From the NCBI GenBank assembly GCA_024679065.1, contig JAGIQG010000003.1, positions 28,024,001 through 28,088,000 on the forward strand: a stretch of 64,000 nt of DNA. The letters are read 5' to 3'. The position numbers and the translations under genes are program-made. Below, one piece after another: positions 13,316-62,355 of this stretch. The stretch comes from Sphyrna mokarran. Taxonomy: Eukaryota. The first letter of the stretch is position 1; each line of letters begins with the position of its first letter. The notes under the pieces are model-generated. The model did no database searches. It worked only from the letters and a program-made list of their open reading frames with translations, and was not told the origin of the DNA.

Positions 13316-13330
13316 ACTGTGCTGCTCTTA

Positions 13331-13474
13331 TGATGTAGAGATGCTGGCATTGGACTGGAGTAAACACAGTAAGAAGTCTTCTTCATCAGGTGAAGAAGAG
13401 GACAGCCTTGAAAGCTTGTGAGTTTACTATCAAATAAATCGATTGGACTTAAACCTGGTGTTGTCAGACTTTTT
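13331..13474. mobile_element. Mini fold-back Penelope pLTR insertion with decayed hammerhead motif
   Basis: 15-bp TSD actgtgctgctctta (13316-13330, 13475-13489); two opposed pLTR ends meeting at cttcatcagg|tgaagaag..gaaagcttg; homologous to 61360-61487. Confidence 0.85.
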
Positions 13475-14093
13475 ACTGTGCTGCTCTTAGCCAGCATTCA
13501 GATCACTTAAAGCCCACTCCCTACCCTTACAGGCAAGGAATCATTTCTATCAATTTTTTGTGCAATGAATGCATAAGAAAGCAGCTTTGAACTCACCCAA
13601 GAAACCAGTTTGAAACTCTCCCTTTTGCCCACCTGTCCTGGACTTAGTCTTTATCAGTAAGATCGACCCCAAAATGTATTGCTACTGCTTATGAACTATC
13701 CAGGATGAATTATGTATAGGCCTACTTGTTTCCCTATCATTAGAGTTGATTTGGCAACAGAATACACATCACCTATAAGTGCTTTACTTTACATACAATA
13801 CTGCATCTAGGAGTGGAATAATATAAATAAACTAGATAACTAGTAAAACTTCTGTGTTGCATGGTGTTGGGCATAGTTATGGTAGATATTATCAAGGTAT
13901 TTGTAACTTTAATAAGCATTTATTGACTATTTGAATCTACATACATAGTCACAGTAGTGGTCCAAGCTACGAAATGTCTCCATGCTTGCTTCTACACATG
14001 CCCTGTCTAACACTACATTGACCCCTAGGAGGGGGTTATGTGTTCTCATGCTTCACTATGTGAGTGGCACTAATACTCAATCCCACACACTGT

Positions 14094-14440
14094 AAGAATG
14101 TAGGAATAAAAGCAGGAGTAGGCCACCAGGCCCTTCAAGCCTGCCCAGCCATTCAATACGATCATGGCTGATCTGTGCCATTTTCTTATAGCCCTCTATT
14201 CTTCAATCTTAAAATATTTATCCACCTCCATTTTAAATACTTCTAATGATCCAGGTCCCACCACACTTGGGGTAAAGAATTCCAAAAATACACCAATCTT
14301 TCCATGTGAAGAAATTTCTACACACCTCAGTTTTAAATGATCAGCTATTTATCTTGTAGCTATGTCCCCTTGTTCAAAACTCTCCCACTAGTGAAAATGC
14401 TTCACTGTCTACCTGTCAAGCCCCCTCAGGAGCTTAAATG
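14094..14440 (-). mobile_element. CR1 LINE 3' end (second subfamily)
   Basis: taggaataaaagcaggagtaggcca..cagccattcaatacgatcatggctgatct, the reverse complement of the tail type at 43750-43870. Confidence 0.75.
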
Positions 14441-14559
14441 TTTACACTTTATGTGCCAGGCTACCATACTATACAATACTATATTCCCTAAGTCTTTATC
14501 CAATATATTTACAAATTATTCCTTTTACCCTATTTATGTACATCAATGCTACTACCTCA

Positions 14560-16770
14560 TATGCATCGCGCTCCTCACCTTCTCAGTTCTGACTTAAAGG
14601 TTCAAGCAGCCTTGAGGCCTTATAAAACTTTGCTATCTTATTCTTATTGCTATTGGAAAAGAGATAGACTCAGCCAATGCAGGTAATCTTTGTTGAATTG
14701 GAGGTTGTTCTCTCATCTGGGTATCTCTTTATTCTCTTTTTTTTTGTTTTTTGACATTGAATTGCTCTTTGTTGATACCCCAATTGTAGTGATAGATGAT
14801 TTATCCTGTTTTTTTATATGGTAAATGAACTCTGGATGTATCTCTGTGATTTTTTTTCTCTACTTATTTTGTGTAGCTGACCATGATGCATCTTTTTTCT
14901 GTTGTGAATATGTGACTTTGTAGTAAGCTCATCTTTACATTTGGCTGAGTGGCGTGTGTTGTTAATGGATGGCTGCTACTTGGTTCCAGTATCATTTCTG
15001 GCACTGTCAGACTGACTGGAGATTGCAGTCTCTGCTCTGTAATCTCAGGGTTTTTTTAAAGTTTAAGTTTATTTATTAGTCACAAGTAAGACTTACATTA
15101 ACATTGTAATGAAGTTACTGTGAAATTCTCCTAGTCGCCACACTTCAGCATCTATTTGGGTCAATGCACCTAAGCAGCACATCTTTCCAACTATGGAGGA
15201 CACCAGAGCATCTGGAGGAAACCCACATAGACACAGAGAGAACATGCAAACTCTATGCAGACAGTGACCCAGAGAATCAAATCTGGATCCCTGGTGCTGG
15301 GAGGCAGCAGTGCTAACCACTATGCCATCATGTCACCCAGATTTTTACAACTGGTATTGGAGCTGAAGTTGAGGCTCTTCTTGTTGCTGCTTCTTCTCTT
15401 TACCATCATCATGGTAACCATCTAATGGCTGGTTGGTGTGACTAATGAGGGACTTGTGGCACCTGTAATGAAAATGAATAAAATGCTCTGTAAAGTGAGG
15501 AGACAATTCATCGTTGAAGTCCAAGCTGACAGGATCTTTCATGGTACATCTTTTGGTAGAGCTTAATGTTCTATAATTTACGACAGTGGCTATCCTGATA
15601 TCTTCTGCCATTTTGAGGAGATTCAGGGCTCTACAGGTATCTCTGCTTATGTGAAAAACAGACTGGTTACAGTTGATATATCAGTTTGAAGATTTATTTT
15701 CCACCATACTGTAATGATTCCAGAATCATGCCTATAACCAGAAGTTGGATTTCTCAGGGTACAAGAGGTGTTGTGCCTATTGTTCATATCATTGGTCACT
15801 TAATCATAGTTCTTTGTCTGTGCCTCCTATGTCCAACATAGAGCTTGTGAGATGACAATTAACCAACATATCCATAGTCTAGAACATAAATCCAGAATCT
15901 TTAACCTCAACCAAAAAGCAGGTTTGTGTATCATCTTGGTGTACTGGTCTTAACCTCATAAATCCTCTTGATATTTTGGCTGGAATTGTACTGGCACATC
16001 TGCCTGAGGCTTGTAAGATCTCCCCCAAGACAAATGGAAGATGCTGTTCTGCAAGCCTTGCCTGCCCCTATTTCGGGGTAGGCGTGCTGGTAATATCATG
16101 GCCTTTGTGTGCATTTTGAATTTTTGGCTTTGTAGAGCTTTTCAAAATGTCCTATTTGGTTACATTGAAAGCATTGAGTTGACCTTGTCAGAACATTGAT
16201 CAAGCCTATTTGCTCCACAATACTGGCAAGTTACCCTACACGGTTAGGGTATTGCATCTGTTGGCCTTGAGCGTTCCTGTTTCTGTGCTGTTTAGCTAAT
16301 GGAACAATGAGGCTTACTTGGTACCATGGTTTGCTTTTTATCTTTAATGTTGATTGCAAGTGGATTTCAGATTTCCTTATAATCTAGGTAGCTTTTTCAT
16401 GGATTAGACTTCCTTTCATTTGAAGTATATCAGAAGCTGCAATTCCTGCAATTATCCTATCCCTGATTAGTTCAAATTTCATGTATCCATAATCACAAGC
16501 TTTAGCCATTCAATACAACTCATTAATGAGGGAGTCACAAGTTTGTTAAACTTAGCTCATTCAAGTGTTTAGTTACTTCTGAGGTTAATATAAGCATCAA
16601 ATGACTTTAAAATTTCATCAGATTTTGCAGATGGTTCATTGATTCCTTGTCTAGCTATCATACTATCAGCTAACGGGTCTACCAAATAAAACAGTGCATT
16701 AACTTGTGCTGCTTCGACCTTTTTATCCATACCTGAAGTAATGATGTATCTCAGGAATCTCTTTCTTCAA
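14560..16770 (-). mobile_element. Decayed, internally deleted Gypsy LTR retrotransposon (gag, protease remnants)
   Basis: Manual translation: KRFLRY..QVNALFY, AKACDYGYMKFELIRDRIIAGI (gag), CQYCG knuckle remnant, LDIGG (LDTGA-like), SRDTCRALNLL; many stops. Confidence 0.65.
15052..15338 (-). mobile_element. tRNA-derived V-SINE with non-CR1 (Rex1-like) tail
   Basis: Minus strand head ggcatagtggttagcactgctgcctc, V-domain, tail aacttcattacaatgttaatgtaagtcttacttgtgactaataaataaactt. Confidence 0.85.
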
Positions 16771-17102
16771 AGCCCCCAATTTTGTGATTGATCTAGAATT
16801 TAAATAAGTCCAAATTGATCTAAAAGTGTGGATTTTTGATCTAATCGTTAAAGTTTTTAAATTGAAAGTTCAGACTTACGAGATTTCCAAAAATCCAAGA
16901 TGATATAGCCATATGCTTCTTCACAAAGGATTTTTCTGCACTTGCCAGTTTTGGTGGGCTCTCATGTCAATGTCATTCGTGATCTCAGCATTTACAGTTT
17001 TTCAACAATGGCTGCGTGGAACAACTTTTTAGAGTCTTTCCTGCTTTAGCATGATGTTCTTGGGTATTTGAAGCATTGAATTCTAGCTTTTACTGAGTTT
17101 TT

Positions 17103-17360
17103 CGGGTGGCACAGTGGCACAGGCCTCACAGGGACTCAGGTTCGATTTCCGGCTTGGTCACTGGCTGTGTGGATTTGCACACTTTCCCCATGTCTGTGTG
17201 GGTTTCCTTTGGTGCTCTGGTTTCCTCCCACAGTCTGAAAGATATGCTGGTTAGGTGCATTGACCCGAACTGGCACTGGAGTGTGGTGACTAGGGGAATT
17301 TCAACATAACTTCATTGCAGTGTTAATCTAAGCCTTACTTATGATTAATAAATAACTTTA
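17103..17360 (+). mobile_element. tRNA-derived V-SINE with non-CR1 (Rex1-like) tail
   Basis: ggtggcacagtgg, B box ggttcgatttcc, V-domain, same tail as 15052-15338. Confidence 0.85.
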
Positions 17361-18311
17361 AAGCTGAAATCACAAAATTCACCAAGGTGTTTGCAGAGGT
17401 AGCAAACATATGGGGAATTGATGCGAGTTGCCATGTTTATTTCCTACCAATACATGTTTGCAGAACAGATTTAAATTGTTCAAGTGTGCAAGGCTTTGCC
17501 AGTAAGTGACAATTATGGCTTCTGATGAACTGCATACATAAGATTGTATCATGTACTTCAGAAATCTACCAATACAAAATAATGATAAAATATAGGAATT
17601 CTGAAGCAGAGTCATCATAAAGTGTTGTGTGTGAGTCATATCGTTGTGTTACTTTTTAACACTTGTGAATGCAACTTTTACAAATCACCTTTCCCTGATT
17701 ATCAAGGGTAAAATGTGTGTGTAGTGTTTTGCTTCAGTGTAGCTGATGCACAAAACCAATTCAATAGGCATCTAAAATCACAATAGGCACAGTGATATAC
17801 AGTGATGATATAGCATAATTTTTGCCAGTACCAAGTTATGGTTACTTCACACAAAGCAGATGGAATATTTCATAATCAGATGATTAACACAATGTAGTTG
17901 AATGCTGACATTTTGCTGTTAAGTAGCAGAGGATTATGCTGATGAAGTATTTGTCTGTAGTTTTCTTAGGGATAAGGATGGTATTTAATTGACATTCATG
18001 AACTGTACTAATGCTTTAATGGAAGGACAATGCAATTTGAGTTTATGTAGAGTAGATGTCTAACAGTACTAAAAGGCGCACAGTTTTATGTTAATGTAAG
18101 CAGTGAATCATTTTGCATTTCGTTTTGAATTTCGTAATATAATTTATTTTCATAGCTTTGTATGCTATTCTTCCATTTGAATCCTTGTAATTTGTTTCTG
18201 TGATTATTTTTGACTCCCGCTGTGAGCGGGCTTTCCCACTGTGGATGCAGCAAAACATTGGACATTGGCGGGATCTTCTGGCTTTGCATGGCCTGCCTGC
18301 TCAACTACCAT

Positions 18312-18421
18312 GGGGAAGGGAGTTGGGGGTGGAAAGGCGGGGAGGGGGGGGGGGGGGGGTGGGGGGGGGGGTGGGGGGGGTGGGGTGGGGGGGGTGGGGG
18401 TGGGGGGGGTGGAGAGGGGGG
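18312..18421 (+). repeat. Poly-G / (G4-11T)n tract
   Basis: ~110 bp G-rich; 18344-18412 contains only G and T. Confidence 0.9.
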
Positions 18422-20419
18422 TTGTCCAACTTCAATGGGACCAAAAGATTCTGACAATGATTTCCAAAGCCACACATTTTTTTAGATGGAATCGTTTTTC
18501 CTTATATCCCCCATTTTTTTCCTGTCAACTCTATCTATGCTGCTCAGTGCCTATCTTATATTTATTGCCCCTTATTTTGAACAGTGGCATAAAAGGGAAC
18601 ATTTTCTCTATATTTTTCAAACCTTTCATGGTCATAGAACCCCTACAATGCAAAAGGAGGCCATTTGGCCCGTAGTGCCCACACCAACTCACTGGCAAAG
18701 CATCTTACCCAAGTTCACCCCTCCTCCCCAATCCCGTAACCCTACACATTTACTATGCTAATCTCCTTAACCTATAAATCCTCAGACATTAAGGGACAAT
18801 TTCGCATTGCCAATACACCTAAACTGAACATCTTTGGCCTGTGAACAGTGAATGCACAACTCAGGATAGTCAGGGTGACTTGGCTTGAAGAGTTTCAGAA
18901 CAAACTAAAAACCAAAAAATTTCTGAGGAAATGCTTTGATATTACAACCACAACAGCTTGTATATGTTTGGTAATAAAATGTCCCAAAGTGTTTCCTGAG
19001 AGCATTATCAAATCTTAATGACTAAATGAAATAAAAATATTTTTCCTCCTTTGGCTATTTCATATTTCTACACTATAAAATTGACCTGACTGGGTTATCA
19101 AGCTAGTGACCTATCCCCTAGCTTTGTAAATGTCATTCTGCAGCTGATGATGTGTTTGGGAGAGGGATAGTGTGAAATTACAGGGAGGGGATTTCCTCTG
19201 GGTTTCTGCCTGTCCTGATCACATAGTAATTGTACGCTAGGATGGGAAAATCCTGATAGGAAGCCTGACCTTGCCCCAATGAAGGTTCTTAAGTGCAAAT
19301 AATTGCTGCAAGAGCTGTTTCCTGCCCAGCTTCAATTGTTAGGGCTGGCAAGAACCTTGATCCTCCATGAGGAAGCCTGGTAAAACTCAGTGTTAGATCT
19401 TGGTTGGAAGGTGAGGAAGGTCCGATGACCTCTGGGCTACAATCCTCACCCACTTGCCTCTTCCCAAGACCACAATCAAGCCTTTTGTACCCTCCCCGCT
19501 CTTAGAATCCTTACATTTCCCTTGTCCTTTGGCTCCTGCACTTAGCCTCAGGTAGATTGGTGTATTTTCTCTGTGTTTACTGATTGACTGGCAGTTCTCT
19601 AAGGTGGAACTTCCTTCTGAGTAAGGGGTAGAACCCCACCTACTGGAAATCAGTAGTGTAAATGAACTGCCGTGCATTTGGCATTGGCAGGGTTGTGTCC
19701 CCTACTGACTGTGGATGGTGGAAGGCAAGCTCCTGCCTTCTGAAAAAATTCAGCTTTTAGTTGTAAAAATGTTCAACAGTTCATGCTTACCTACTCTGAA
19801 GTGAAGTCAGCTGCTGAGGAGAATGGAAAATTCATGAGCCCCGGCCAAAGCCAATCTGGCCGTAAGAGCTTTGCTGAGACGTGTTTTGGGGGCAACCTTG
19901 ACACAGTATTGGAATTGATGCGAGTTGCAAATAACAGTATTGAGTGGACTCAATATACCTCACACTGATAATGCCATCTACTCTTGTTAAAATTCTTCTG
20001 ATGCAATCCTAATCGACTCAATTCCTCTTCATAGGTCAGTCCTGCCACCCTAGAAATCAGTCTGTTAATCTTCTCTGCACTCTGTACTGACATCTTTCCT
20101 TACATATAGAGATCAAAACTGACCCACTCTATGTTCCCCCAAATTAGGAATTATTCCCTTGCCAGCGTGATGTCATACAATGAGGTTTCCAATTGTTTTT
20201 TAAAAATGGGATCCAGGTGAAGAAAATCCATAGGAACACGCAGCTGACTATAGCCTCAGGGAAAGGGAGGGAAATGCTTGAGCAGTACCTTGGCACTGCA
20301 CTTTGGCACTGCTCCCTGGCACCCTAGCTGTGCCCAAAGCACCCTGGGAACAGTACCAAGGGGTGGAGCTCTAGGGGCCTCCATGGAGGAGTAAACTCTT
20401 ATTATTTTTATCATAGAGC

Positions 20420-20612
20420 CGTCTCCCATGTCTGCATGCATTTCTTCCAGGAGTTCAGGTTTCGTCCCACAGTCCAAAGATATGCAGATTAGGTTGATTG
20501 ACCATATAGATTACCCATTAGTGTCAGGGGAACAGCAGCGTAAATGTGTTGGGTTATGGGGATAGGGCTGGTTGGATTGTGGTCAATGCAGACTTGATAA
20601 GCCAAATGTCCT
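20420..20612 (+). mobile_element. 5'-truncated HE1-type SINE
   Basis: V-domain ccacagtccaaagatatgcag and tail actgtagggattctatg. Confidence 0.8.
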
Positions 20613-21979: not shown

Positions 21980-22098
21980 ATGAAATCGTTTACTAGAACG
22001 TGCTCTCTCACAATCCTGTGAGGTGTCAAAGCAATCCCACCAAAGCTTGTAAGAGTATAGTGATAAAAATAATTTCTATTGATCTGTGCAGCTTTGAC
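21980..22098 (-). CDS. Candidate internal exon of an unidentified gene (119 nt)
   Basis: Acceptor aattttttgcttgaag|G, donor CAT|GTAAGA, one open frame VKAAQINRNYFYHYTLTSFGGIALTPHRIVREHVLVNDF, in repeat-free DNA; protein not recognised. Confidence 0.25.
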
Positions 22099-25614: not shown

Positions 25615-28178
25615 TACGTAGATAGTGCAGTTAGGGAAGGGACCGCATTGGACCTGGTATGGGGGAATGAGCCCAGCCAGATGGTTAATGTTTCAGTAGG
25701 GAAGCAGTTTGGGAATACAATTCAGTAAGTTTTAAGGTACAGAAGGATAAAGATAAGTGTAATCCTCAAGTTAAGGTGCTAAATTGAAAGAAGGCTAATT
25801 ATAACAAAATTCTTCAGGAACTGAAGAATGTAGATTGGGGGCAGATGTTTGAGGGCAAATCAACATCTGGCATGTGGGAGGCTTTCAATTGTAAGTTGAT
25901 AGGGATTCAGGACTGGCACATTCCGATAAGGATGAGGGATAAGTATTGCAAATTTTGGAGCCTTTGGATAACAAGAGATGTTTTGAGCCTTGTGAAAGAG
26001 AAAAAGGAAGTATTCGTCAAAGATAGGAAGCTGGGAACAAGTGTGAAATACAAAGAAAGAAGAAAGAAATTTAAGCAAGGAGTAAGGAGAACTACAAGGG
26101 ATCATGAAAAAGCATTGGGCAGCAGGATTAAGGATAATCCCAAGGTTTTTTATACATAATAAAGAGCAAGAGGGTTACCAGGGAGAGGATTGGCCCATTC
26201 AAGGACAAGGGAAGGAATCTTTGCGCTGAGCCAGAGGAAATGGGTGAGGTATTAAATGAGAATTTTGCTTCAATATTCACCCAAGAGAAGGACTTGGTGG
26301 ATGATGACTGTGGGATAGGGTGTGTAAATGATTTGAGCCAGGGAGTTCTTGAGAACCATTAAGCTACACATGACCACAGGGTCTGATGGAATATACCACA
26401 GAATACTGAGAGAGGCAAAAAAGGAAATTGCTGGGGCCTTGAGAGAAATCTTTGTATCTTCACTGGCTACAAGGAAGGTCCCAAAGGACTGGAGAACAGC
26501 CAATGTTGTTAGTTTGTTTAAGAAGGATAGCAAGAATAATCCAGGCAATTACAGGCCAGTGAACCTTACATCACTGGTAGGGAAATTATTCGAAAGGACT
26601 CTTTGAGACAGGATTTATTCCCTCTTGGAAATAAGTAGAAGTATTAGTGAGAGGCAACATAGTTTTGTGAAGGGGAGGTTGTGTCTCACAAACCTGATCA
26701 AGTTTTTCGAGGAAGTGACGAAGATGATCGTTGAGGATAGGGCAGTGAATGTTGTCTACGTGCACTTCATTAAGGCCTTTGACAAGATCCCTCATGGCGG
26801 ACTGGTGCAGAAGGTGAAGTTGCATGGGACCAGAGGTGAGCTCTGTTACAAAAGTGACTTGATCAAAGAAGACAGAGTGTAGCAATAGAAGAGTGCATTT
26901 CTGAATGGAGAGCTGTGACAAGTGGTGTTAAGAACTCAGAAAGAATTTAGCAACACCAATTTTAAATCCAACCGATTTAAATCCAATTTCGGTTGGATTT
27001 AAAATTGGTGTTGCTAAATTCTTACTGAGTTCTTACTACCCCAGTCCAATGCCGGCATCTCTACATCACAAGTGGTGTTCCTCAGGGATCAGTGCTGAGA
27101 CCTTTGCTATTTGTAATATATATAATTGATTTGGAGGAAAATGTAACTGGATTGATTAGTAAGTTTGCGGATGATGTAAAGGTTGGTAGATTTGTGGGTA
27201 ATATTGAGGACCATCAGAAGATACAGCAATATATATATCAGTTGGAGACTTGGGCAGAGAGATGGCAGATGGAATTTAATCTGGACAAAGGTGAGGTAAT
27301 GCATTTTGGAAGATCTAATAAAGATAGAAAATATACAATAAATGGAAGAACCCTTAAGAGTTTTAACAGGCAGAGGGATCTGTATAGGTACACAGGTCAT
27401 TGAAAGTGAAAACACAGGTGGAGAAGGTAGTCAAGAAGTAATACGACATGCTTGCCTTCTTTGGCCAGGGCATTGAGTTTAAAAATTGGCAAGTCGTCTT
27501 GTAGCTTTATAGAACCTTAGTTAGGCTGCATTTGAAATATAGTATTCAATTCTGGTTGCCACACTACCAGAAGGAAGTGGAGGCTTTGGAGAGGGTACGG
27601 AAAAGATTTAATAAGATGTTGCCTGATATGGAGGGCATCAGCTATGAGGAGAGGTTGGAGAAACTTGGTTTGTTCTCATTAGAATGACAGAGATTGAGAG
27701 ATGACCTGATAGAAGTCCACAAAATGGTGAGAGGCATGGAAAGAGTGGATAGTCAGAAGCTTTTTTCCAGGATGGAAGAGTCAATTACTAAGAGGAGTTA
27801 CAGATAGTTCTATGGCCTGATAGGTATAGGTATGATCGGCACAACTGGTGGGCCGAAGGGCCTGTTTATGCTGTAGTGTTCTATGTTCTATCTTCTACTG
27901 GTTTAAGGTGCGAACGGCAAGTTTAAAGGAGATGTAAGAGGCAGATTTTTTTATACAGAGGATGGTGGGTGCCTGGAACTCATTGTTGTGGGAGGTAGTG
28001 GAAACACATATAATAGTGAGTTTTAACGGGCATCTGGACAAATACATGAATAGGATGGGATTAGAGGGATATTGTCCCTGGAAGGGTGGGGGGATTTTAG
28101 TTAAGTAGGGTAGCATGGTTGGACGGTTGAAAGTCCTGTTCCTGTGCTGTAATTTTCTTTGTTTTGTTCTTTGTTCTT
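25615..28178 (+). mobile_element. CR1 LINE ORF2 (EN end, RT) and 3'UTR with nested insertions
   Basis: PKDWRTANVV..NPGNYRPVNLTS, KAFDKIPH, LISKFADD, WQMEFN; tail ttttctttgttttgttctttgttc; nested inserts at 26930-27067 and a second CR1 tail at ~27790-27896. Confidence 0.9.
26930..27067. mobile_element. Palindromic mini-insertion of Penelope pLTR ends
   Basis: 12-bp TSD acaagtggtgtt (26918-26929, 27068-27079); 46-bp arms 26930-26975/26989-27034 with one mismatch; arm nearly identical to the PLE end at 36149-36195; 33-nt unpaired tail. Confidence 0.92.
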
Positions 28179-29344: not shown

Positions 29345-29437
29345 TACAAAGAGTCACCCAGACTCGAAATGTTAGCTCTATTCTCTCTCTATAGATGCTG
29401 TCAGATCTGCTGAGGTTTTGCACATTTTTTGTTTTTG
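29345..29437 (+). mobile_element. Short PLE LTR-derived fragment (second family) with decayed hammerhead
   Basis: gagtcacccagactcGAAAtgttag (stem II gagt/actc then GAAA), followed by agatgctgtcagatctgctgag; homologous to 57215-57360. Confidence 0.65.
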
Positions 29438-29677
29438 CTGTAATGGTTATTTATTGGTTGTCCATCTTGTCCTCCCCTAACATTAAACAACCAGTGAAGC
29501 AACCAAACCTTCAATGTCATCATTTTCACTGCTGAACTAGTGATGGAACTGCATGAACTGTGAAATAAGATCTTCAGTATTAAATTACTGGAAGCTCTGT
29601 TAGAGAGGAAATCTGTTGAAAAATGTTCTGCAAATATATCTTAAAACCCTCTCCACCAAGCAATATTACAGTTATTG

Positions 29678-29805
29678 TTCTGATGAAAGATCATCAACCT
29701 GAGATGTTAATTCTGTTTCTGTCTTCACATATGCCTGACCTGCTGAATATTTCCAGCATTTTCTGATTTTATTTCTGGTTTCCAACATCCATAGGACTAT
29801 GCTTT
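29678..29805 (+). mobile_element. Short PLE LTR-derived fragment with decayed hammerhead
   Basis: CTGATGAaagatcatcaacctGAGAtgttaa followed by gcctgacctgctgaatatttccagcattttctg. Confidence 0.65.
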
Positions 29806-30019
29806 TCAAGCCGTTATATGTATTATCTTCCTTGTTGGAATCATAATAACAAACCTTGTTTTGTATAAACCACGGATGCTAGGTTTTGAACTTAAGCATC
29901 TGATATTATTTCTGGTTAGTTGGATTTTAATATCAATTTTAGATTGACCTTTTAAAAAGAAAATTAAGCATTTGAAATTGGATAGCTCTCTGGACAAAGG
30001 AGACCTGTTCACATCAGTT

Positions 30020-36146: not shown

Positions 36147-37762
36147 AGAAGAACTCAGTAAGAATTTAGCAACACCAATTTATAATCCAACCGATTTATT
36201 TGATAGTAAAAAAGCGAGCTTTCGACTCTTGTGTCTTCCTCAGGCAAATGCAGTGTTCTGGTCTGCAATAGCACACATCAGCACAGACAGTCAGAGGTTG
36301 CTGATTAGCATGCGAATCCTTACGTCTAACCTGCTATTCAAGTGTTAAAGTGGCGAACAATGTGTGTGAAGGGAATCCTGAGCATTGTTGGAGAATTGTG
36401 TATTTTCTCCAGACAGCACAGTAAGTGAGGTTTTTTGCTAACCCAGGCAAGTTACGGGGGTTACAGATTGTGTGTCATGAAGCCAAGATCCCTGTTAAGA
36501 CCGTCCTCATGTGTGCGGAGCTTGGCTATCAGTCTCTGCTCAGCGACTCTGCGCTGTCGTGTATCACAAAAGCCCCCTTGAAGAACATTTACCCGCAGGT
36601 CGGAGGCCGAATGCCCATGACTGCTGAAGTGTTCGCCCACAGGAAGGGAACTGTTTTGCCTGGTGATTGTTGAGCGATGCTCATTCATCCGCTGTCGTAG
36701 TGTGTGCATGGTCTCCCCAATATACCATGCTTCGGGACATCCTTTCTTGCAACGTATTAGGTAGACAACGTTGGCCGAGTTGCAAGTGTATGTACCGTGT
36801 ACCTGGTGAATGGTATCCTCACGTTTGATGATGTCGTCCATGTCTATGATCCGGCATGTCTTGCAGAGGTTGCTGTGGCAGGGTTGTGTGGTATTGTGGT
36901 CACTGTTCTCCTGAAGGTTGGGTAGTTTGCTGCGAACAATGATCTGTTTGAGGTTGTGCGGTTGTCTGAAAGCAAGAAGTTGGGGGGTGGGGATGGCCCT
37001 AGCGAGATGTTCATCGTCATCAATGATATGTTGAAGACTCCGGAGAAGATGTCGTAGCTTCTCCGCTCCGGGGAAGTACTGGACAACAAAGGGTACTCTG
37101 TCCACTGTGTCCCGTGTTCGTCTTCTGAGGAGATCAGTGCGGTTTTATCGTTGTGGCACGTTGGAACTGTCGATCGATGAGTCGAGCGCCATATCCTGTT
37201 CTCACGAGTGCATCCTTCAGTGTCTGGAGGTGTCTGTCACGATCCTCCTCATCTGAGCAAATTCTGTGTATACGGAGGGCTTGTCCATAGGGAATGGCTT
37301 CTTTAACGTGTCTAGGGTGGAAGCTGGAGAAGTGGAGCATTGTGAGGTTGTCTGTCGGTTTGCGGTACAGTGAGGTGCTGAGGTGACCGTCCTTGATGGA
37401 GATGCGTGTGTCCAAGAATGCAACTGATTCTGGAGAATAGTCCATGGTGAGTCTGATGGTGGGATGGAACTTGTTGATATCATCATACAGTTGTTTCAAT
37501 GATTGTTCACCATGAGTCCAAAGGAAAAAGATGTCATCAATGTATCTAGTATATAACCTTGGTTGGAGATCTTGTGTGGTGAAGAAGTCTTGTTCGAACC
37601 TGTGCATGAAGATGTTGGCATACTGAGGTGCGAATTTGGTCCCCATGGCTGTTCCGTGTGTCTGGATGAAAAGCTGATTGTTGAAGGTGAAGACATTGTG
37701 GTCCAAGATGAAGCGGATGAGTTGTAAAATTGCATCCGGAAACTGGCAGTTGTTGGCATTGA
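36147..37762 (-). mobile_element. Penelope-like element (Neptune-like), 5'-truncated: RT + GIY-YIG + pLTR
   Basis: 37134-37706 GTAMGTKFAPQYANIFM, RYIDD, FLD; 36461-37105 PCHSNLCKTC linker, VVYLIRC..WYIGET..LRQRMNEHR..GLNRD; one frameshift between the two ORF pieces. Confidence 0.95.
36198..36250 (-). ncRNA. Minimal type I hammerhead ribozyme in PLE pLTR, core intact
   Basis: Minus strand catttgc-CTGAGGA-a-gac acaaga gtc-GAAA-gctc|gc; palindromic AGCT helix III as in PLE minimal HHRs; predicted cleavage after CUC, between 36216 and 36215. Confidence 0.7.
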
Positions 37763-38919
37763 GACAATCCTGGACATTACAAATCTGTGAGTCTTACATC
37801 AGTGCTGGGGAATTTATTGGAAAAAATTCTTAGAAACAGATGTACTCACATCTGGAAGAGAATACGCTTATTAGCGATAGGCAGCATGGTTTTGTGAAGG
37901 GGAAGTTACATCTCTCAAACTTGAATGAGTTTTTTGAGGAAGTGACAAGAAAAATTAACTAGGGCAGGGCAGTGGAAGTTGTATACATGGACTTCTGTAA
38001 AGCCTTTGACAAAGTTCCTCATGGCAAGCTGATGCAGAAAATGAAGTCATGTAGGATTCAGGGTAAGCTGGTATATTGGATACAACTGGCTTGGGCATAG
38101 AAAACAGAGAGGAGCGATGGAAGAGGACTTTTCTAACTGGAGATCTACAACAAGCAATGTTCCACAAGGATCAGTGCTGGGGACCCTATTGTTTGTAATA
38201 CATATAAATGATTTAGAGGAAAATATAGGTAGTCTGATTAGTAAATTTGCAGATGATAAAAAAATTGGGGAGGGGGCGGAATTGTGGCTAATAAGGAAGA
38301 TTGTCAGAAGATACAGCAGGATATGAATCAGCTGGAGACCTGGGCCCAAAAATGACAAATGAAAGTTAACCAGGACAACTATGTATGTGATTTAGAAGGT
38401 CTACTGCAGAAGGAAAGTATACAATAAATGGGAGAGCCTTTAGAAATATTAACATACAAAAGGATCTTGGTGTGCAGATCCACACTTTCCTAAAGGTGGC
38501 TACTCAGATGGACAACGTGGTCAAGAAGGTAATACGGCATCCTATCTCATTGGTCAAAGCATTGAATATAGAAATTAGAAAATCTTGTTGCAGCTATGTA
38601 AGACTTTGGTTAGGCTGCATTTAGTATTGTGTACAATTCTGATCATTACACTACTGGAAGGGTTGCATTGTACTGGAATGCATTGGAAAGGGTTGCAGAA
38701 GAGTTTTTTTAGAATGTTGTCTGGATCCCAAAAATGTGCTCTTAGGCTAATTGGCAAAACAAATTCTCCCTAAATTGTCTCAAATTTGTTTTTTAATCCA
38801 TAGATCTATAAACATAGACAGGGATCACAGGTAGAGGTAGGAACATTGGGGTGGCGGCATGGGCTCATTGGGCTGAAGGGTCTGTTTCCCATGCTGTTTT
38901 GTTCTTTGTTCTTTGATTA

Positions 38920-40486
38920 TAAGCTAAGATTTAAGTTGATCCAGAGGTGATCCCTCCTCCCCCCCCAATTCTTTAGGGCATGACAGGTAGCACAGAAAGT
39001 AGATACTGAGCTTAAAAAAAGGTTGGAAGAACTAGGCATTGTCCAGCCAATTCAGTTTTTGGAATGGGCAGCACCTATCATCCCCGTATTGAAACCGTAC
39101 AAGACCATTCACAGTTATGGCAATTATAAGCTAACAGTTAATCAGGCTACTGAGCCGGGTATATATCCAGTCCCAAGAACTGAAGACCCTGAGTGCAAAG
39201 CTGATAGGATATCAATCTTACAGAAGATTGGATATGAGTCACATGCATCAACAACTCAAGTTAAATTATGCTTACAGGGGCTGGCCATGATAAGCACATA
39301 TACTAAGGCCTATTTCAGTGTATGTGCCTCCTTTTTGGAATGTCTTCGGCATGTGCAACATTCCAAAGGACAATGGAGAGTCTGCTAAAGAAGCTAGCAC
39401 AGATTATAGTACACCTTGATGATGTCCTTATAACTGGATTGAGAGACGCTGATCATCTAGCAAATTTAGAAGAAGTGTTAAAGAGGTTTCAGGAGGCTAG
39501 AGTTGGCCTTAAGAAAGAGAAATGCACCTTTCAAGCCACTGAGATTACATACCTGAGGAGCCCATGTAATTACATGAGAATGGCATCCCATGAAAGATAA
39601 GGTCAAGGTGATAAGAGAGACACCAACCTCTACAAACCCAACTGAACTCAAATTGCTCTTGGGAGATGGTAAACTACTATGGATGTTTTTTAGAAACTTA
39701 TCTACGGTACTAACCCTGTTGCATATTCTGCTAAAGAAACACCATTGTTGGAAGACTCCCCAGGAGAAAGCTTTCAACAAGAGTGGAGTTATTGCTGAAT
39801 TTCTCAAACCTGTTATTATACTTCTAACTGTTGTAAGAACTGATATTGACTTGCAACACCTCTCCATATAGTGTTGGTGCAGCATGGTCCCATAAAATGA
39901 AAGATGGCTCTGTAAGATGGATCGGATAAGTGTCAAGAACCCTCTCAGAGGTCAAAAAAGACTATTCATGAATCAAGAAGGAAAGACTGTCAATATTCTT
40001 TGGTATCAATAGATTCCATCTGTACTTACATGGTAGAACCTTTATCATCATTTCTGAAGTGCAAATTGGATTCTCGGAATCATTGCTTCTAAGAATGAAT
40101 CCTTTTCTTACCAAGTTGACTTGAAGGGACAGATCACTTGTAAACATGTGGGCCAGTTGAGGAGTACAGAGATGCTGAGTAGTCATTGTTGCCGTTAAGA
40201 AATGTTTCCAAATCCATGAACATTGAAGTACCTGGTCAACCTGTTGTAGACATAATTGATGTCTCTTTGGCAGCAAATAGCGATAAGCTGCCTGTACTAG
40301 GAGGTACCCGTTATGCAGTTGATGTTGATCCTGAGGAAGCATCGCAGACAAAAGAATTGCACCATCCAGTATGAGTCAGAGACTTGATTTATAATTGTCC
40401 AACACATGTATATAATGTTTGTTTGTAATTTAGAACTGAGTTAATTAGTTATTGAAAATTGTATAAAGGAGTTAAAGGGGGAAGGA
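38920..40486 (+). mobile_element. Decayed Gypsy LTR retrotransposon pol region
   Basis: LGIVQPIQFLEWAAPIIPVLK..GNYKLTVNQ, LFGMSSACATFQRTME..HLDDVLITG, RNase H remnants; integrase mostly deleted; polypurine tract aaagggggaagga ending at 40486. Confidence 0.85.
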
Positions 40487-42483: not shown

Positions 42484-42813
42484 TTCCTTGTATAGTAATC
42501 ATTTGTTGGCTATGTGACTTTTCAAGTTTTTCTACAACAAAAGATTTCTGAATCAAGGCTGCTTACTCACCAAAGAAAACATCTTTAAGAATTAAAACAA
42601 CTTGAATACGCAATTTAACTCCTTCCTTTATGGTTTATTATTCCTAAGCCCCTATAATCTGGAATGATTTGGGCTCCATATATTGGTATTTATTTGAAAT
42701 TATAAACACATGTAAAAACTGAGACCACAATTAACCTTGCACAAAATATCCTCAGCCGCATTTTGAAACTACGTACTTGTATTGATACATACTTTATCCA
42801 AATACACAAGAAA
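42484..42813 (-). repeat. Inverted duplication, left arm (~330 bp)
   Basis: Reverse complement aligns end to end with 45566-45910 with scattered substitutions and small indels. Confidence 0.93.
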
Positions 42814-44998: not shown

Positions 44999-45024
44999 AT
45001 TGGAATTGATCTTCACAAATCTGC
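44999..45024 (-). other. Candidate 26-nt microexon
   Basis: tcagtttttcttttattacag|GCAGATTTGTGAAGATCAATTCCAAT|gtaaga; splice motifs only. Confidence 0.2.
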
Positions 45025-45565: not shown

Positions 45566-45910
45566 TTTCTTGTGTATTTAGATAAAGTATGTATCTATAC
45601 AAATACATAGTTTCAAAATGCGACTGAGGATATTTTGTGTAAGGTTAATTGTGGTCTCAGTTTTTACATGTATTTATCATTTCAAATAAATACCAAAATG
45701 AAAATATGGAGCCCAAAGTATTTCAGATTATAGGGGCTTAGGAGAAATTAAAAAACCATAAAGGAAGGAGTTAAATTGTCTATTCAATTTGTTTTAATTC
45801 TTAAAGATGTTTCCTTTGGTGAGTAAGCAGCCTTGATTCAGAAATCCTTTGTCGTAGGAAAGCTTGAAAAGTCACATGGCCAACAAACGGTTACTCTATT
45901 ATACAAGGAA
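45566..45910 (+). repeat. Inverted duplication, right arm
   Basis: Partner of 42484-42813; continuous with AT-rich unique flanks, so probably the source copy. Confidence 0.93.
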
Positions 45911-53013: not shown

Positions 53014-53432
53014 GATTTGATTTGATTTGATTTTTTGATTTGATTTGATTTGATTTATTATTATCACATGTATTAACATACAGTGAAAAGTATAGTTTCT
53101 TGTGCGCTATACTGACAAAACATACCGTTCATAGAAAAGGAAACAAGAGAGTGCAGAATGTAGTGTTACAGTCATAGCTAGAGAAAGATCAACTTAATGC
53201 AAGGTATGTCCATTTAAATGTCTGACAACAGCAGGGAAGAAGCTGTTCTTGAATCGGTTGGTACATGACCTCAGACTTTGTACCTTTTTCCTGGAGGAAA
53301 TTGATGGAAGAGAGAATGTCGAGGGTATGTGGGATCCTTAATTATGCTGGCTGCTTTGCTGAGGCATTGGGAAGTATAGATAGAGTCAATGGATGGGAGG
53401 CTGGTTTGCCTGATGGATTGGACTACATTCAC
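53014..53432 (-). mobile_element. Rex1/Babar LINE 3' end nested in CR1
   Basis: (GATTT)n on the + strand; homologous to 10039-10450. Confidence 0.88.
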
Positions 53433-55786: not shown

Positions 55787-55944
55787 GGCTGGAATTCTCC
55801 AACCTTGCCTGCAGCTGGGATTCTCTGGTCCCACGGTTAGGATTCTCTAGTCCTGCTGCAGTGAATGGAAGTTTGACTCAAAGCCAAAGTCTCTGTTCTC
55901 ACTGGCAGCTGTGGAAGGGCATAGGAGACTGGAGAATTTCAGCC
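55787..55944. mobile_element. ~160-bp MITE
   Basis: TIRs ggctggaattctcc / ggagaatttcagcc (13/14 match). Confidence 0.7.
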
Positions 55945-57214
55945 CATGTCTGAGCTTGCATGTAATAAAATCACTAAAACTGTACCAAGTAGCACTGATG
56001 CTGAGATACGAAATTACAATTGTGTTTAAGCCTTCCAGCTAGTGGATTACATTGTTTGCAATTCCAGCTGCATCCCTCTTCTTACGTTGATTCCTGTCAA
56101 TGGGAGTGGGAGATGCAGAGTTTATGATGTGCTGGGTTGATGTTCCACAAGTCTCTGAAAATTGCTGTTCTTTGTTATCTAGGCAGCAAAGGAATACATC
56201 TTATAACATTAGCAGTAAAACACATTTTGAAATACACTTCTGTTTTGCAAAATATTGCTGTGTGCTGCATGCCAGTCTTTGCTTATATTTGAGAGAGTGA
56301 ATGAATAAGTATTTGGGATATAAAGAATAAAGTATGGGATTCTAACTGGAAGGAACTATTGCTACAACATCCTAAATCTTTAGGCTGCCTTCTCATGGCA
56401 GCTTAGATTTTCTACTTGAGCAAAACTCTTAAGCACAAAATTGGCAGAATACAATTTGCACCTGTCTACTGAAACATGACCTGACCCTTCCTTCCCAGAG
56501 ATTTTAGGGATAATGAAATAAAAATAATAACTGTGACCTCCTGACTACTAATTATTAGGATCTCCACATTTTGAGAGGGAGTGAAATCTTGTCTGTTACT
56601 GAATATAAAAGCCTATGGGACCTTAAAGAAACAGCATATCAAATAGATTAATTTGGAGTAGCTTTGACAGGTCTTTGGAAAGATGTTCACTGCATCTTTA
56701 AGGTTCATTGGTGAAGTTGTAGAAGTGCTTTTCAATGATGTTAAGCAGAGGATGAAGGTATTTTGAAACTTGCAATATCATTCTGCACAGAAGGTGGTCA
56801 AGACGAAAGTTCCCAGGGAAACCTGGAACTTGGCCAAAGAACTCAGTTCTGAAAAATATTTATTGCTCTTCGTGAATTTGGCAAACTAACAGCGATGAGC
56901 AACATATCTTCCGAGAATGCACTGAATGAAACATATCTGAAGCTTGTAATGATCTCTAATGTGTAATGTATTTCAGTAGTTTTCTGTCAATGCTTATGAG
57001 GTGACACAAGACTCTCCACACCTCCACTTTCAATGTAATTGTAATCATTTCTCTGTTTACTTGCTCTCTGTGGGAGTAAAAGCAGCTTAATGAATCATAA
57101 GGGCATGCACAAAAGATGGAATTTTCCTGATCTCAGGCAGGATTTTCCAGTCTTGGGGTGAGTGCAGCCAGAAAATCCCACTTTTTGTGTCTTAAGGGAG
57201 AAGTATTGTTACAT

Positions 57215-57360
57215 AAAGGCAAAATACTGCGAATGCTGGAATCTGAAACAAAAACAGAAAATGCTGGAAAATTTCAGCAGGTCTGACAACAGAGAGAGAA
57301 TAAAGCCAACATTTCGAGTTTGGTTATCCAGACTTGAAACATTGACTTTATTCTCTCAAA
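57215..57360. mobile_element. Mini fold-back PLE LTR insertion (second family)
   Basis: 11-bp TSD tattgttacat (57204-57214, 57361-57371); opposed arms gagagaataaagccaacatttcgagtttgg / ccagacttgaaacattgactttattctctc. Confidence 0.8.
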
Positions 57361-57890
57361 TATTGTTACATGCCTAGGTTATGCTACAACAATAGATACT
57401 AACCAAAGAAAGTGAACTATGACCACATAAAGTGCAGGTTCTACTTTTGCAAGGGACTAAACCTGAGAATGTGCCTTTGACAGATCTAAATTTAGCTAAA
57501 TGTCTTAGCTGCCTGTTTCAGAAAAAAAACTGGCCCATCATTTTAAGCAATAATATAATTTAAGCAATTATATTAAGCAATGCTGTGCTTAATATAATCA
57601 TTATCCAGTTTTACCTGTGACACTGAATTACTAAGAGCAATTGAGAAGATGTTATCAGTACAATTTGGAAATCAATATGGGCAGGACTTTTTGGACAGCA
57701 CTGTTTTCCATCCCTGCTGTGCATGGCAAGCGCACAGCCATTTATCTCTCCGAGGAACATTTGTTGGCTGGAGACCAGACTTCCATGCCTCACTCAGGCA
57801 AGATCCTGTCTCAGAGAGTTATTGGCCAACCTGATTGGCCAACAGATCTAAAATCCCAGTTAAACCAGTTGCAGCAGTGGCCAGAACTGT

Positions 57891-58910
57891 GACTACATGC
57901 AGTCCACAGATTCTCAGTCCCAGAATCCAGGACCAGTAGATGAGGGGAGGAGGGTGGGGAATTGTGGCGGTGTGTTAAACACAGTGAGGTGAGGTCCTGA
58001 AAGTATGGAGAGGCAGTAGGGTCTTACTGAAGAGGCCAGTGGGAGACTTTTGTAGAACGGAGTGGTACCCGATGTGGAAAGAGGGTCCTGATGGAGGTGC
58101 CTCCACCCTAACTTTTGCGACAAATCCCTGAGCTCTCCCCCCAGCCCTGAAGTCCTTCTGCCTGCCTCAAAATTGAGATGGAGCTAAAAAGTGCCTTTAG
58201 ACGAGATCAGGCAGGACAATAGGCCTCACCTATGTTCCATAAAATTGTGGACAAATCAAGGATGAGCAGTGTAGCATCAAGAAGATCTCCAAAGGAATTT
58301 TACAGGCCTTTGGGTATCAATTGGTCTGACTGTCTCAGTGAATAAAGATTTGGGGTCAGATTTTTACATAGTCTTCCAAATTCCCCAGACCTTTAAAAAA
58401 TGATGGGCCTGACCTGGAGGTAAAAGTCCCACTCCCATTTCTGTCAAATCCTGTTTTTGCTGCCAGGGCAAGGGTTTAAAGTGGAAGGAGGCAGAGGAGG
58501 TACTGCTAATTCATTGAGCAGAAAAACTGAAATTCAGCAGGTTCTCTTGAAGTTTAGCTCTTGATTTATAGCAGCTGGATTTTGGTTAGTGTAAGGGCCT
58601 TAACCTGCAGTGTGAGATCACAGATTAAACACAACTGAAGGGTCAATAAAGTCTGTTTAAGTATTATGATGTGAAGGTTTGTAAATCCCTTGCTCTTTGA
58701 ACATGAAAAAAAGGCTTAGGCTTCAGTGAGATTCAAACAAACCCTCTGCTGGGCTACATGTAGTCCACAGATTCTGAGTCCCAGAGTCCTGTGTGTGTGA
58801 GAGAGAGAAAGAGAGAGAGAGAGAGAGGAGTGGTATGTTCAACATCAGTGAGGGCCTCTAAAGGTATGGAGAGGCAGTAGGGTTCTTATTGAAGAGGCCA
58901 GTGAAAGACT
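57891..58910 (+). repeat. ~160-bp direct duplication (57891-58048 and 58753-58910)
   Basis: ctacatg.agtccacagattct.agtcccaga and gtatggagaggcagtagg..gaagaggccagtg occur in both copies. Confidence 0.85.
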
Positions 58911-60038
58911 AGAATGCTTTCATTGATAAACCACCCATTGTAGTTTAGGGAAAAAAAAGTACCATCCAGTCATGCAGCTTTCATAGGTGTTCACATTTCC
59001 CCCAGTGCTATTATAAATTTACTCAGTGTCAAAAGCTATAATTATCTCTGAATTCACAATTTGACTGAAAATTTAAAGAGCCATTAAAGGATATGTTGAC
59101 TTTGATATGGGGTATGAATAGAAGTTTGTTTTTGTAACAGATTAATCACTTGAGGCAATTTAAAATCTTTGGGTCCCACTGGCAGTGTGAAGCTTGGCAG
59201 ATGGGGGAACTTAATTTGCATGAGTACAAAATCCCATCAATGGTGGGATCATCTTTTGGAATAAGGTTTTGAGGACTTTAAAGACAGATTAAAGGCAGAT
59301 TGAGCTTCCCAGGGGCAGTGTTATGTAGCCGTTTTGCATGTATTAGCATGCCACCTTGCCAGAATTAAGCTCCATCTCCAACCTTAATCCCCAACATGGA
59401 GAAATTAAAACAATAACATTTATGACTGCATGCAAGTGGCATGCACTCAGTGAGCTTAACTTCTTCCTGGACTTTGAAGTGAATAGTTGCTGTCCTGGCC
59501 TTCTTGGACATCCCTCACAATCTCAGTCTCTTGATTCAGATCATGGTACCAGTAATTCAAGCTTTTCATTGCCTCACTCTTTGGCTTGAAGGCCTCCAAA
59601 TCATCTTCCACTCCAAACTCTGCTCCGAGAAGAAGTATGAAACATGTTCAACTTTCTTCTACCAAAAGGTCCACACAGAGAGCTTGTGATCAGCAGCCTG
59701 AAGAAAGAAGATGACTGAGTAAAGTCATTGCAGTCTGACGTTCTGAGGATCTGCAAATCCTTCTATGCCAGATTGTATGACCTGAAGCCAACAGATGGCA
59801 CAACCTCCCAATCCTTTCTGTCATTTATCTCAGAGGTCTTAGACAATAGCAAGTGGGAGAGCCTGGACAAACGGCTATCTCTGGATGAGATGACAAAGGC
59901 AGTCAAGTCCTTTGAGATGAGTAAAACTACTGGAAGTGACAGTTCAATAGCTGTGTTGTATTTGGCCCTGTGGGACTAGATCAGTAAGAAGTCTCACAAC
60001 ACCAGGTTTAAGTCCAATAAGTTTATTTGGTAGCAAAA

Positions 60039-60080
60039 GCCACTAGCTTTTGGAGCACTGCTCCTTCGTCAGGTAAGTGG
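60039..60080 (-). ncRNA. Hammerhead motif, probably inactivated (GAAA to AAAA)
   Basis: ccacttac-CTGACGA-a-ggagc agt gctcc-AAAA-gcta-gtgg. Confidence 0.6.
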
Positions 60081-61350
60081 GAATTCTGTTCACAAACAGG
60101 ACATATAAAGAAACAAACTCAATTTACAAAATAGTGGTGTAGAATGTGAGTCTTTGCAGGCAGTCAAGTTTTGAAGGTACAGATAATGTGAATGGAGAGA
60201 GCATTAAGCATAGGTTAAAGATATGTGTAGTGTCTCCAAACCAGACAGTTAGTGAGATTTTGCAAGCCCAGGCAAGTTTTGGGGGTTACAAGTAGTGTGA
60301 CATGAACCCAAGATCCTGGTTGAGGCAGTCCTCATGTATGCAGAACTTGGCTGTCAGTCTCTGCTCAGTGACTCTGCATTGTCGTGTGTTGTGAAGGCTT
60401 TCCCAAAGATCAGAGACCGAATGCCCTTGACCGCCGAAGTGTTCCCCAACAAGAAGAGAACACTCTTGCCTGGTGATTGTCAAGTGGCTTTCATTCATCC
60501 ATTGCCATAACATCCGCATGGTCTCCCCATGTAGCATGCCTTGGGACATCCTTTTCTGCAAAAGATGTAAACAAATGTTGGCCGAGTTGCAAGAGGATGT
60601 ACCATGTACCTGGTGGATGGTGTTCTCATGTGGGATGATGGCATCCATGTCAATGATCCAATACATCTTGCAGACATTGCTGTGACAGGGTTGTGTGGTG
60701 TTGTGGTCACTGTTCTCCTGAAGACTGGATAGTTTGCTACAGACAATGGTCTGTTTGAGATTGTGCAGTTGTTTGAAAGCAAGAAGTGGGGTGTGTGGAT
60801 GGCCTTGGTGAGATATTCACCTTCATCAGTAACATGTTGAAGGCTTTAGAGATTCGCTGTAGAAAAGGATGATGTCTCCAGGCATGTTAATTGGGAAGCC
60901 CATGCAGACACTACAACAACGGATGAATGAACACTGCTTGACAATCACCATGCAAGAGTGTTCTCTTCCTGTTGAGGAACACTTCATTGGTCATGGGCAT
61001 TCAGCTTCTGATCTTTGGGTAAGTGTTCTCCAAAGCGGCCTTCACGACACATGACAACACAGTCACTGAGCAGACACTGATGGCCAAGTTCTGTACACCT
61101 GAGGATGGCCTCAACTGGGATCTTGTGTTCATGTCACACTATCTGTAACCCCACAACTTGCCTGGGCTTTTAAAATTTCACTAAATGTTCTGTCTGGAGA
61201 CAATACACATCTCTTTAACCTGTGCTTAATGCTCTCTCCACTCACATTGTCTGTACCTTTAAGACTTGATTACCTGTAAAAACTTACATTCCAATTATTA
61301 TTTTGAAAATTGAGTTTGCATCTTTATATGCCCTATTTGTGAACAGAACT

Positions 61351-61392
61351 CCCACTTATGTGATGAAGGAGCAGCACTCCGAAAGCTAGTGG
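61351..61392 (+). ncRNA. Hammerhead motif, probably inactivated (C3 to G)
   Basis: ccacttat-gTGATGA-a-ggag cagca ctcc-GAAA-gcta-gtgg. Confidence 0.6.
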
Positions 61393-62355
61393 TTTTTGCG
61401 ACCAAATAAACCTGTTGGACTTTAACTTGATGTTATGAGACTTCTTATTGCGTTTACCCTAGTCCAATGCCAGCATCTCCACAGAATGACTACATCAGCC
61501 CAAACTTGCTGGAAATGTATGAAAGTATGCTCCTGGCAGGAGCATGCCAGAATCCATGAGGAAAGGCATCATTAACTCATCTACAAGCAAAAAAGGGGAA
61601 AGGGGAGAAATTAGGTATTGGTGACCCATTTCATTGTTGAATGTAGACTATAAAATTTTGTCCAAGGTCACCGCCAATCAGATCAATCTGCCCTGGAATT
61701 GGTGATCCACCCTGACTATATTTGTGCTGTATCCAGCAGGAAGATCTCTGAAAGCCTCAAGCTACTCAGAGATACGACTACCTACATGCAGGGCAGGAGG
61801 GTGGACACTTGCCTCATCAGCCTGGACCAGGAGAAGTTGTTTGACAGAATATTGCACATCTATATGATGAATGTGCTTTCTAAAATGGAATTCAGGGAGG
61901 AATCCACAATTGGTTTCAATTGCTCTACGTAAACATGAATAGCGCAGTTTCAATCAATAATGAGAATCAAAAAGCTTTCAGATCAAATCTGGTGTTAGGC
62001 TGAGCTGGCCTGCCTCCTCTGCCCTGTTTTTGTGTTTGTGTGGATTCATGGAGTGATGGTCTGAGGCTGTGGAGACAGGCTGTTCAAAGCCTCTCTGTAC
62101 ATGGATGATGTCACCATCTTCTGCTCAAATTCATTCTCAGTTGATGTCATGGCACAGGTCTGGCCCATATCCTCATCCTGCGCTACAGCAGTCACCTGAG
62201 CCATCTTCAAATTCATCTGGAGATAGATAGATAAATTCAAGGTAGATTGTGACCCAAGGAATATCATGCACAAATCTCTGGATAAGGGAGAAACAAACGT
62301 ATCCAATGCTTCTCATCCTTGGCCACCTTTGTGCACAGCTGCATCAAGCTATGCG

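Follow-up and report, generated by a model that had tools for sequence, protein, structure and literature searches.

The stretch of Sphyrna mokarran DNA analyzed here (the window; 64,000 nt of contig JAGIQG010000003.1, positions 28,024,001 to 28,088,000) contains four insertions, ins1 to ins4, each of which is built from two opposed 3′ ends of Penelope long terminal repeats (pLTRs) and has a target-site duplication (TSD) on either side. They are probably truncated, one-off insertions of endonuclease-containing (EN+) Penelope-like elements (PLEs), in which both cut strands of the target prime DNA synthesis on the end of the element RNA and the two copies are joined head-to-head. They represent a genuine and frequent trace of a class already known, and not a new element family.

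The insertions and the element they come from

Re-checking of the coordinates confirmed that the four insertions and TSDs listed in the first-pass annotation are all real (Table 1). Each contains the two opposed pLTR ends that had been claimed, with a 3′ tail on one end only. An inverted 5′-truncated pLTR lies beside a direct copy in all four, and the arm opposed to the tailed arm lacks the last 30–45 nt (~86 nt in ins3). The assignment to at least two unrelated pLTR families holds for ins3 (family C), whereas ins1, ins2 and ins4 are subfamilies of a single lineage (families A and B, ~75% alike). Similarly, the palindromic or hairpin label suits ins2 and ins3, with DNA folding energies of −49.0 and −26.7 kcal/mol, but not ins1 (−11.7 kcal/mol), which is hardly a hairpin because its tailed arm has lost ~70 nt. 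The presence of hammerhead cores had been overstated: none of the four insertions has an intact hammerhead motif, and ins2 lacks any piece of the core. An Rfam scan of the window found no hammerhead; it returned two weak plastid-psbJ matches over the ins2 hairpin, below the gathering score.

In ins1, the 49-nt end of the tailed arm is followed, after a jump of ~70 nt at a TCT, by 14 nt from the 5′ end of the hammerhead. The continuation of the tail-less arm is identical to the right TSD over the initial 6 nt of the latter, a microhomology. The ins2 target reads CTG-TG-[TSD]-CCT-CAG. The last 3 nt (CAG) of the left TSD of ins4 continue into the inverted arm, and the single mismatch between its TSDs appears to sit where the open reading frame (ORF) start of the element itself would template it. 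Both ins2 and ins4 lie in older repeats whose paralogues include empty sites, in which the duplicated stretch occurs once, spanned by 31 of 81 repeat matches for ins2 and by 9 of 9 loci for ins4. No such site was found among 22 matches for ins1 or 7 matches for ins3.

The ends of families A and B belong to an EN+ PLE with a reverse transcriptase (RT) plus a C-terminal GIY-YIG endonuclease in one ORF. A longer family-B copy in the window (Table 1), which is interrupted by an older-type repeat near position 37770, ties these ends to GIY-YIG and RVT_1 coding pieces (Pfam E-values of 1.3e-4 and 1.3e-6). Its translation contains a CX4CxxC linker ahead of the GIY-YIG motif, together with a CCHH motif. 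CX2-5CxxC in the RT-endonuclease linker plus CCHH is given as the definition of Neptune/Nematis in PMC8557442, which marks the A/B elements as putative Neptune/Nematis-type PLEs, an assignment by linker motif and not by an RT tree. Beyond the repeat that cuts this copy, the sequence at ~38940–39900 of the window resembles, on inspection by eye, a decayed polymerase region of a long terminal repeat retroelement. A tblastn comparison with phages gave no match.

In a near-complete copy (L190), which has a 3,029-nt tandem unit, the ORF starts directly after the tail; the pLTR end therefore doubles as the 5′ untranslated region (UTR). Element positions are counted backwards from the last tail base (0). 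In family B, −128 is the first position of the hammerhead core, and cleavage would occur at −100/−99. Among 69 family-B arms, the core is kept in 56 and all helices, as predicted for a minimal type I hammerhead, in 20.

The genome was surveyed with the family-B tail pattern, which has 4,261 exact matches genome-wide; the sample consists of the 100 matches that head the list, which lie on a single contig. These copies were chosen by tail alone, independently of their junction structure, and the sample favours young copies. An exact TSD of at least 9 bp flanks 70 of the 100, and it is 11–14 bp long in 62 of these 70. An inverted arm is present in 58 copies, and in 54 it ends 26–61 nt inside the tail (−26 to −61), with the outer end within −31 to −45 in 48 of the 54. 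Inverted arms are also present in 14/30 family-A copies (the first 30 loci of 1,692 matches) and in 11/30 family-C copies (the first 30 loci of 405 matches).

The 52 TSD-bounded inverted family-B copies have a main size of 190–270 bp; 36 are 300 bp or less, and three 200-kb stretches outside the window (600 kb) hold 10 distinct short head-to-head insertions (11 rows, in which one locus appears twice). As a rough extrapolation, this would give ~46,000 per genome if the stretches are representative. The expectation that PLE integration routinely yields small head-to-head products is thus borne out. Products under 150 bp, which three of the window insertions are, form a genome-wide minority (3/52). 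The PLE origin and the independent insertion of these copies, which the first-pass annotation had put forward, are likewise upheld by the coding links, the TSDs and the paralogous empty sites of ins2 and ins4. Two copies 0.8 Mb apart (L052, C1:819974; L056, C1:1637642) are identical over 900/900 bases including their flanks and represent a recent duplication.

Junctions, target sites and arm lengths

Either arm can be the longer one. Among the 54 copies, the tail-less arm is longer in 20, the tailed arm in 19, and the arms are equal in 15; in ins1 and ins4, too, the tail-less arm includes sequence from further 5′ in the element. One cDNA that folds back on itself cannot account for such a layout. 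Microhomology amounts to 1.78 nt at the tail-less junction (null 0.72 ± 0.14; 45 clean junctions of 50) and to 1.70 nt at the tail junction (null 0.69 ± 0.12; 63 clean of 70), the latter being an inflated figure as explained below; 0 of 5000 permutations equalled the value at either junction. The arms meet in a blunt centre in 8 of the 54 copies, overlap by 1–4 nt in 20 and are separated by inserts in 26.

The target sites carry a symmetric signature, CTG-N2-[TSD]-N2-CAG, both halves of which are present at 22/70 sites and at 0.3% of flank positions. CTG starts 4–6 nt before the TSD at 41/70 sites, compared with 5.7% of flank positions, and CAG starts 2–4 nt after the TSD at 42/70, compared with 6.3%. 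The spacing from CTG to CAG is 16–17 nt in 23 of 39 pairings. In family A, CTG accompanies 8/11 TSDs and CAG 4/11. Read on either strand, the signature would correspond to a nick ~2 nt 5′ of CAG, as a symmetric nuclease dimer would give. Short cleavage motifs have precedent among GIY-YIG nucleases, since I-TevI is described as cutting at a CNNNG motif (PMC12774661).

The two arms of a copy are coupled. In 49 of the 54 copies they are concordant in length class (37 short-short and 12 long-long, with 5 mixed; p=6e-8), and diagnostic bases agree between arms at 396 of 411 positions, compared with 56% when permuted. For the arm ends we pooled 96 tailed and 53 inverted arms; excluded were a duplicate, the reference and three arms (two tailed, one inverted) that ran past the limits of the retrieved DNA. 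Half of the arms that reach −131 (56/112) stop at −131 to −150, ~30 times the rate further upstream. They stop just 5′ of the hammerhead core and not at the cut site, where a single one of the 149 ends falls, and hammerhead cleavage was rejected on this count as the process that sets the arm ends. In family C, whose core starts at −130, 13/30 tailed arms start at −131 to −137, and none has common sense sequence further upstream.

The ORF-linked pLTRs behave differently. In this set (37 copies from 47 examined; 178 genome-wide matches), a stop at −131 to −150 occurs in just 1 of the 18 upstream pLTRs at risk (p=2.4e-4). This speaks against stalling and favours a separate short RNA as the template. 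We infer that the short arms are copied from an RNA beginning just before helix I; it may be a short pLTR RNA of sense polarity that is non-coding and is mobilised in trans. A 5′-UTR intron ending at helix I is described for D. virilis in PMC4209133. Here it was set aside: the corresponding GT..AG joint is absent in the contigs examined, which cannot prove its absence, and no shared upstream exon was found in the junction inserts.

Three further observations concern arm ends and repeated units. A minor cluster of family-B arm ends lies at −77 to −97 from the tail around AATAAATCGG; it includes ins2 and occurs both in short arms and in ORF-linked pLTRs. At L221 (G000:C749, ~36342480-36343930), an 11-bp TSD encloses an array of 155-bp units, of which eight are direct and two or three inverted. 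Each unit spans −95 to +60, which covers the pLTR end and the ORF start without the hammerhead core; it starts ~4 nt past the hammerhead cut site, as if derived from a circular or multimeric RNA, and the unit junction is the same in both arms. L222 (G000:C771, ~27293400-27293800) is a trimer of 142-bp units of pLTR and ORF start (−115 to +25), and it also lacks the core.

Integration mechanism and alternative explanations

The preferred reading is priming by both target strands on the end of the element RNA. A dimeric GIY-YIG nuclease would nick each strand ~2 nt 5′ of CAG, with the nicks 11–14 nt apart. One 3′ end would prime at the start codon (the tail end, 0 to +5), and the other would anneal by a few bases 30–45 nt further in, which would leave the tail one-sided. 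Both copies would be made on the same RNA or on the same class of RNA, and the short ones would come from RNA that begins immediately ahead of hammerhead helix I, ~131–150 nt upstream of the ATG. Host end-joining would then close the centre through 1–4 nt overlaps or short inserts.

Several points weigh against this reading. The evidence comes from contigs only, and neither a transposition intermediate nor an RNA end was observed. The first form of the template step, in which the short arms arise by run-off at the 5′ end of full-length mRNA, was rejected by the 1/18 stops of the ORF-linked copies. The distance between the arms of a copy is not below that to the nearest other copy (0.020 vs 0.015), and part of their concordance may be due to the activity of one subfamily at a time or to subsequent hairpin repair. 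Because the search pattern demanded the last tail bases, the microhomology at the tail junction is inflated (11 of 63 TSDs start inside the pattern), which leaves the tail-less figure unaffected. Family C lacks the signature (0/6 TSDs), and no linked ORF was found for it in 30 loci. The anole PLE protein is reported to prefer ATT within an AT-rich site in vitro, not CTG/CAG (PMC11167929).

The short size could also arise if twin priming took place on an ordinary long RNA and RT stalled, or was released, once it had copied the structured hammerhead region. The pile-up of ends just 5′ of the core in the unrelated families B and C is what such a stall would leave; a sequence-dependent stall, however, should hit the two arms independently, yet they are coupled, and it should also occur in the upstream pLTRs of ORF-linked copies, where it is nearly missing. 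The stability of the RNA region is ordinary as well (z +0.99), and we regard stalling as unlikely. Self-priming, in which a single cDNA (or an antisense template) turns at a small palindrome, copies itself and joins the target by microhomology, has been suggested for rotifer PLEs in view of palindromes where the inverted copy is joined (PMC3846280). It would suit the overlapping centres, the three copies that turn at a TGCA palindrome and the subfamily bases common to both arms. We judge it quite unlikely, given that fold-back of a tailed cDNA cannot supply the extra 5′ sequence seen where the tail-less arm is longer, fold-back of a tail-less cDNA cannot supply the tail, and 34/54 centres have no overlap.

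The first-pass annotation had raised a further possibility, that the hairpins form a non-autonomous, retrozyme-like family, transcribed and moved as a fold-back unit, and had named uniqueness of every junction as the outcome that would speak against it. None of the 54 inverted family-B copies repeats all three breakpoints of another, so that the hairpins are one-off products and not members of a fold-back family, which would share the junction and both ends at many loci. Only two central junctions recur, −137/−137 in 3 copies (at the TGCA palindrome) and −136/−136 in 2; the three −137 copies are distinct in their subfamily markers, which agree between the two arms of each. Two pairs of ORF-linked copies have an identical inversion junction (L201, C1:108577353, with L216, C113:25275650, on different contigs; L202 with L203, 10 kb apart on C1), inherited either from a long transcript or by segmental duplication. 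The first pair indicates that junctions can be inherited and, like the recurring central junctions, favours a fold-back unit, as does the argument that retrozymes derive from PLE pLTRs (bioRxiv 10.64898/2026.07.22.740005). Retrozymes, on the other hand, are head-to-tail repeats with ends set by ribozyme cleavage. The four window insertions are head-to-head and single, tandem intact hammerheads were not found, and arm ends all but avoid the cleavage site; a retrozyme-like family is therefore very unlikely.

The window holds further repeats. Two more family-C pLTR copies in direct orientation lie at 29358-29437 and 29670-29810. A 35-nt inverted repeat (9521-9555 / 9668-9702; 97% complementary, 112 nt apart) has no match to the PLE queries, and a 134-nt inverted repeat (42680-42813 / 45566-45699) is 93% complementary with its halves 2.75 kb apart.

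Table 1. Positions of the insertions and of the longer family-B copy in the window
Feature	Position	Strand	Remarks
ins1 left TSD	13316..13330	.	15 bp, 15/15 identical to 13475-13489
ins1 tailed arm (family A)	13331..13393	-	49-nt 3′ end including the tail
ins1 tail-less arm	13391..13474	+	starts within hammerhead core; C3 lost at junction
ins1 right TSD	13475..13489	.	from sequence comparison
ins2 left TSD	26918..26929	.	12 bp, 12/12 identical to 27068-27079; within older repeat having empty paralogues
ins2 inverted tail-less arm (family B)	26930..26980	-	no hammerhead sequence
ins2 centre	26981..26988	.	short re-copied arm piece, probably a templated insertion; similar inserts at other loci
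ins2 tailed arm	26989..27067	+	stops where tandem copies go on with the ORF start codon
ins2 right TSD	27068..27079	.	from sequence comparison
Longer family-B copy	36149..37780	-	pLTR end (no tail, hammerhead core present), disrupted GIY-YIG and RT coding pieces
ins3 left TSD	57204..57214	.	11 bp, 11/11 identical to 57361-57371; from sequence comparison
ins3 tailed arm (family C)	57215..57325	-	extends into helix II of decayed hammerhead
ins3 short inverted arm	57328..57360	+	30 nt, 83% complementary; stops ~86 nt before family end
ins3 right TSD	57361..57371	.	from sequence comparison
ins4 left TSD	59974..59984	.	10/11 match to 61488-61498; within older repeat having empty paralogues
ins4 inverted tail-less arm (family A)	59985..60845	-	~860 nt: pLTR, 3′ UTR, endonuclease-coding remnant
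ins4 tailed arm	60858..61487	+	~630 nt, mutated hammerhead core
ins4 right TSD	61488..61498	.	10/11 match; from sequence comparison

Comparison with known elements and implications

L1 twin priming, attributed to Ostertag and Kazazian in 2001, is said to involve internal priming by the second target strand through microhomology, which yields a 5′ inversion inside the TSD. On the preferred reading, the insertions described here resemble it in all three respects. The arms of L1 reportedly copy different parts of the RNA as a rule, whereas here the same stretch is copied twice and the second priming site falls in a narrow window.

The standard EN+ PLE layout comprises an inverted truncated copy, a one-sided tail of 30–40 nt and a TSD (PMC8557442, PMC3846280, PMC2377424). 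As in Pen2a_Av (PMC3846280), the EN+ scheme (PMC8557442, Figure 2) and Penelope of D. virilis (PMC2377424), a 5′-truncated copy adjoins an inverted one. Further features in common with the EN+ PLEs are the tail at one end, the TSD, the hammerhead in the pLTR, the ORF beginning from the tail region and partial tandems. In contrast, most copies here are pLTR-only, their TSDs of 11–14 bp exceed the 8–10 bp cited for rotifer PLEs, and the target has the CTG/CAG signature instead of the microsatellite bias attributed to Neptune.

In vitro, both strands are cut and extended by the PLE protein of the anole (PAc, Poseidon of Anolis carolinensis), which begins reverse transcription at a pair of sites on either side of the tail, can dispense with hammerhead cleavage and is a predicted dimer (PMC11167929). 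Two-strand cutting and extension, two tail-bounding starts, a dimer and independence of hammerhead cleavage would likewise account for our insertions, from which they are deduced. The RT starts of PAc lie 111–118 nt inside the ORF and have no homology to the target; those deduced here lie at the ATG and 30–45 nt upstream, with 1–5 nt of microhomology, in an element whose linker is of the Neptune type.

Minimal hammerheads of metazoan PLEs, which include pairs ~100–700 bp apart on opposite strands (PMC4209133), share with ours the short helix I, the extra base before helix II and the palindromic helix III. The present insertions differ in that none of the four in the window keeps an intact motif and the arm ends ignore the cleavage site. 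Retrozymes carry a hammerhead in each head-to-tail unit and are expressed as circles (PMC7229834; bioRxiv 10.64898/2026.07.22.740005). Like the non-LTR retrozymes, the insertions are non-coding and pLTR-related and have larger TSDs; unlike them, those in the window are head-to-head, single and without working motifs.

Literature searches, with subscription journals and Repbase/Dfam notes outside their scope, listed no work on the present features; they covered Penelope twin priming, a target consensus, a dimer mechanism acting on two strands (from 2023 onwards) and non-autonomous pLTR elements of sharks. Within this scope, the target signature, the microhomology at both target junctions, the coupled arm lengths and the arm stops 5′ of the hammerhead were not found in print; the supplementary target-site figures of PMC11167929 may bear on the signature.

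The origin of the inverted ends and one-sided tails of PLEs is still open, and the steps after first-strand synthesis were left unvalidated by the 2024 in vitro study (PMC11167929). The survey supplies quantitative constraints on the integration mechanism. The thousands of young copies (4,261 exact tails in one family) lead to a precise substrate prediction, CTG-N2-N12/13-N2-CAG, with two priming windows, and the short-RNA model yields an equally precise prediction of an RNA 5′ end. More tentatively, and with somewhat less than even confidence, the genome may record the full Penelope cycle: a dimer that reads CAG on each strand, an 11–14 nt stagger and reverse transcription from both ends, with about half of the arms copied from a dedicated 130–150 nt non-coding pLTR RNA that starts just before the hammerhead. 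Such an RNA would be a passenger like a short interspersed nuclear element, sometimes circular or multimeric (compare L221), and would leave behind small inverted repeats by the tens of thousands. In themselves, the insertions are most probably inert debris; at the roughly extrapolated ~46,000 per genome, they would nevertheless be a large source of short inverted repeats.

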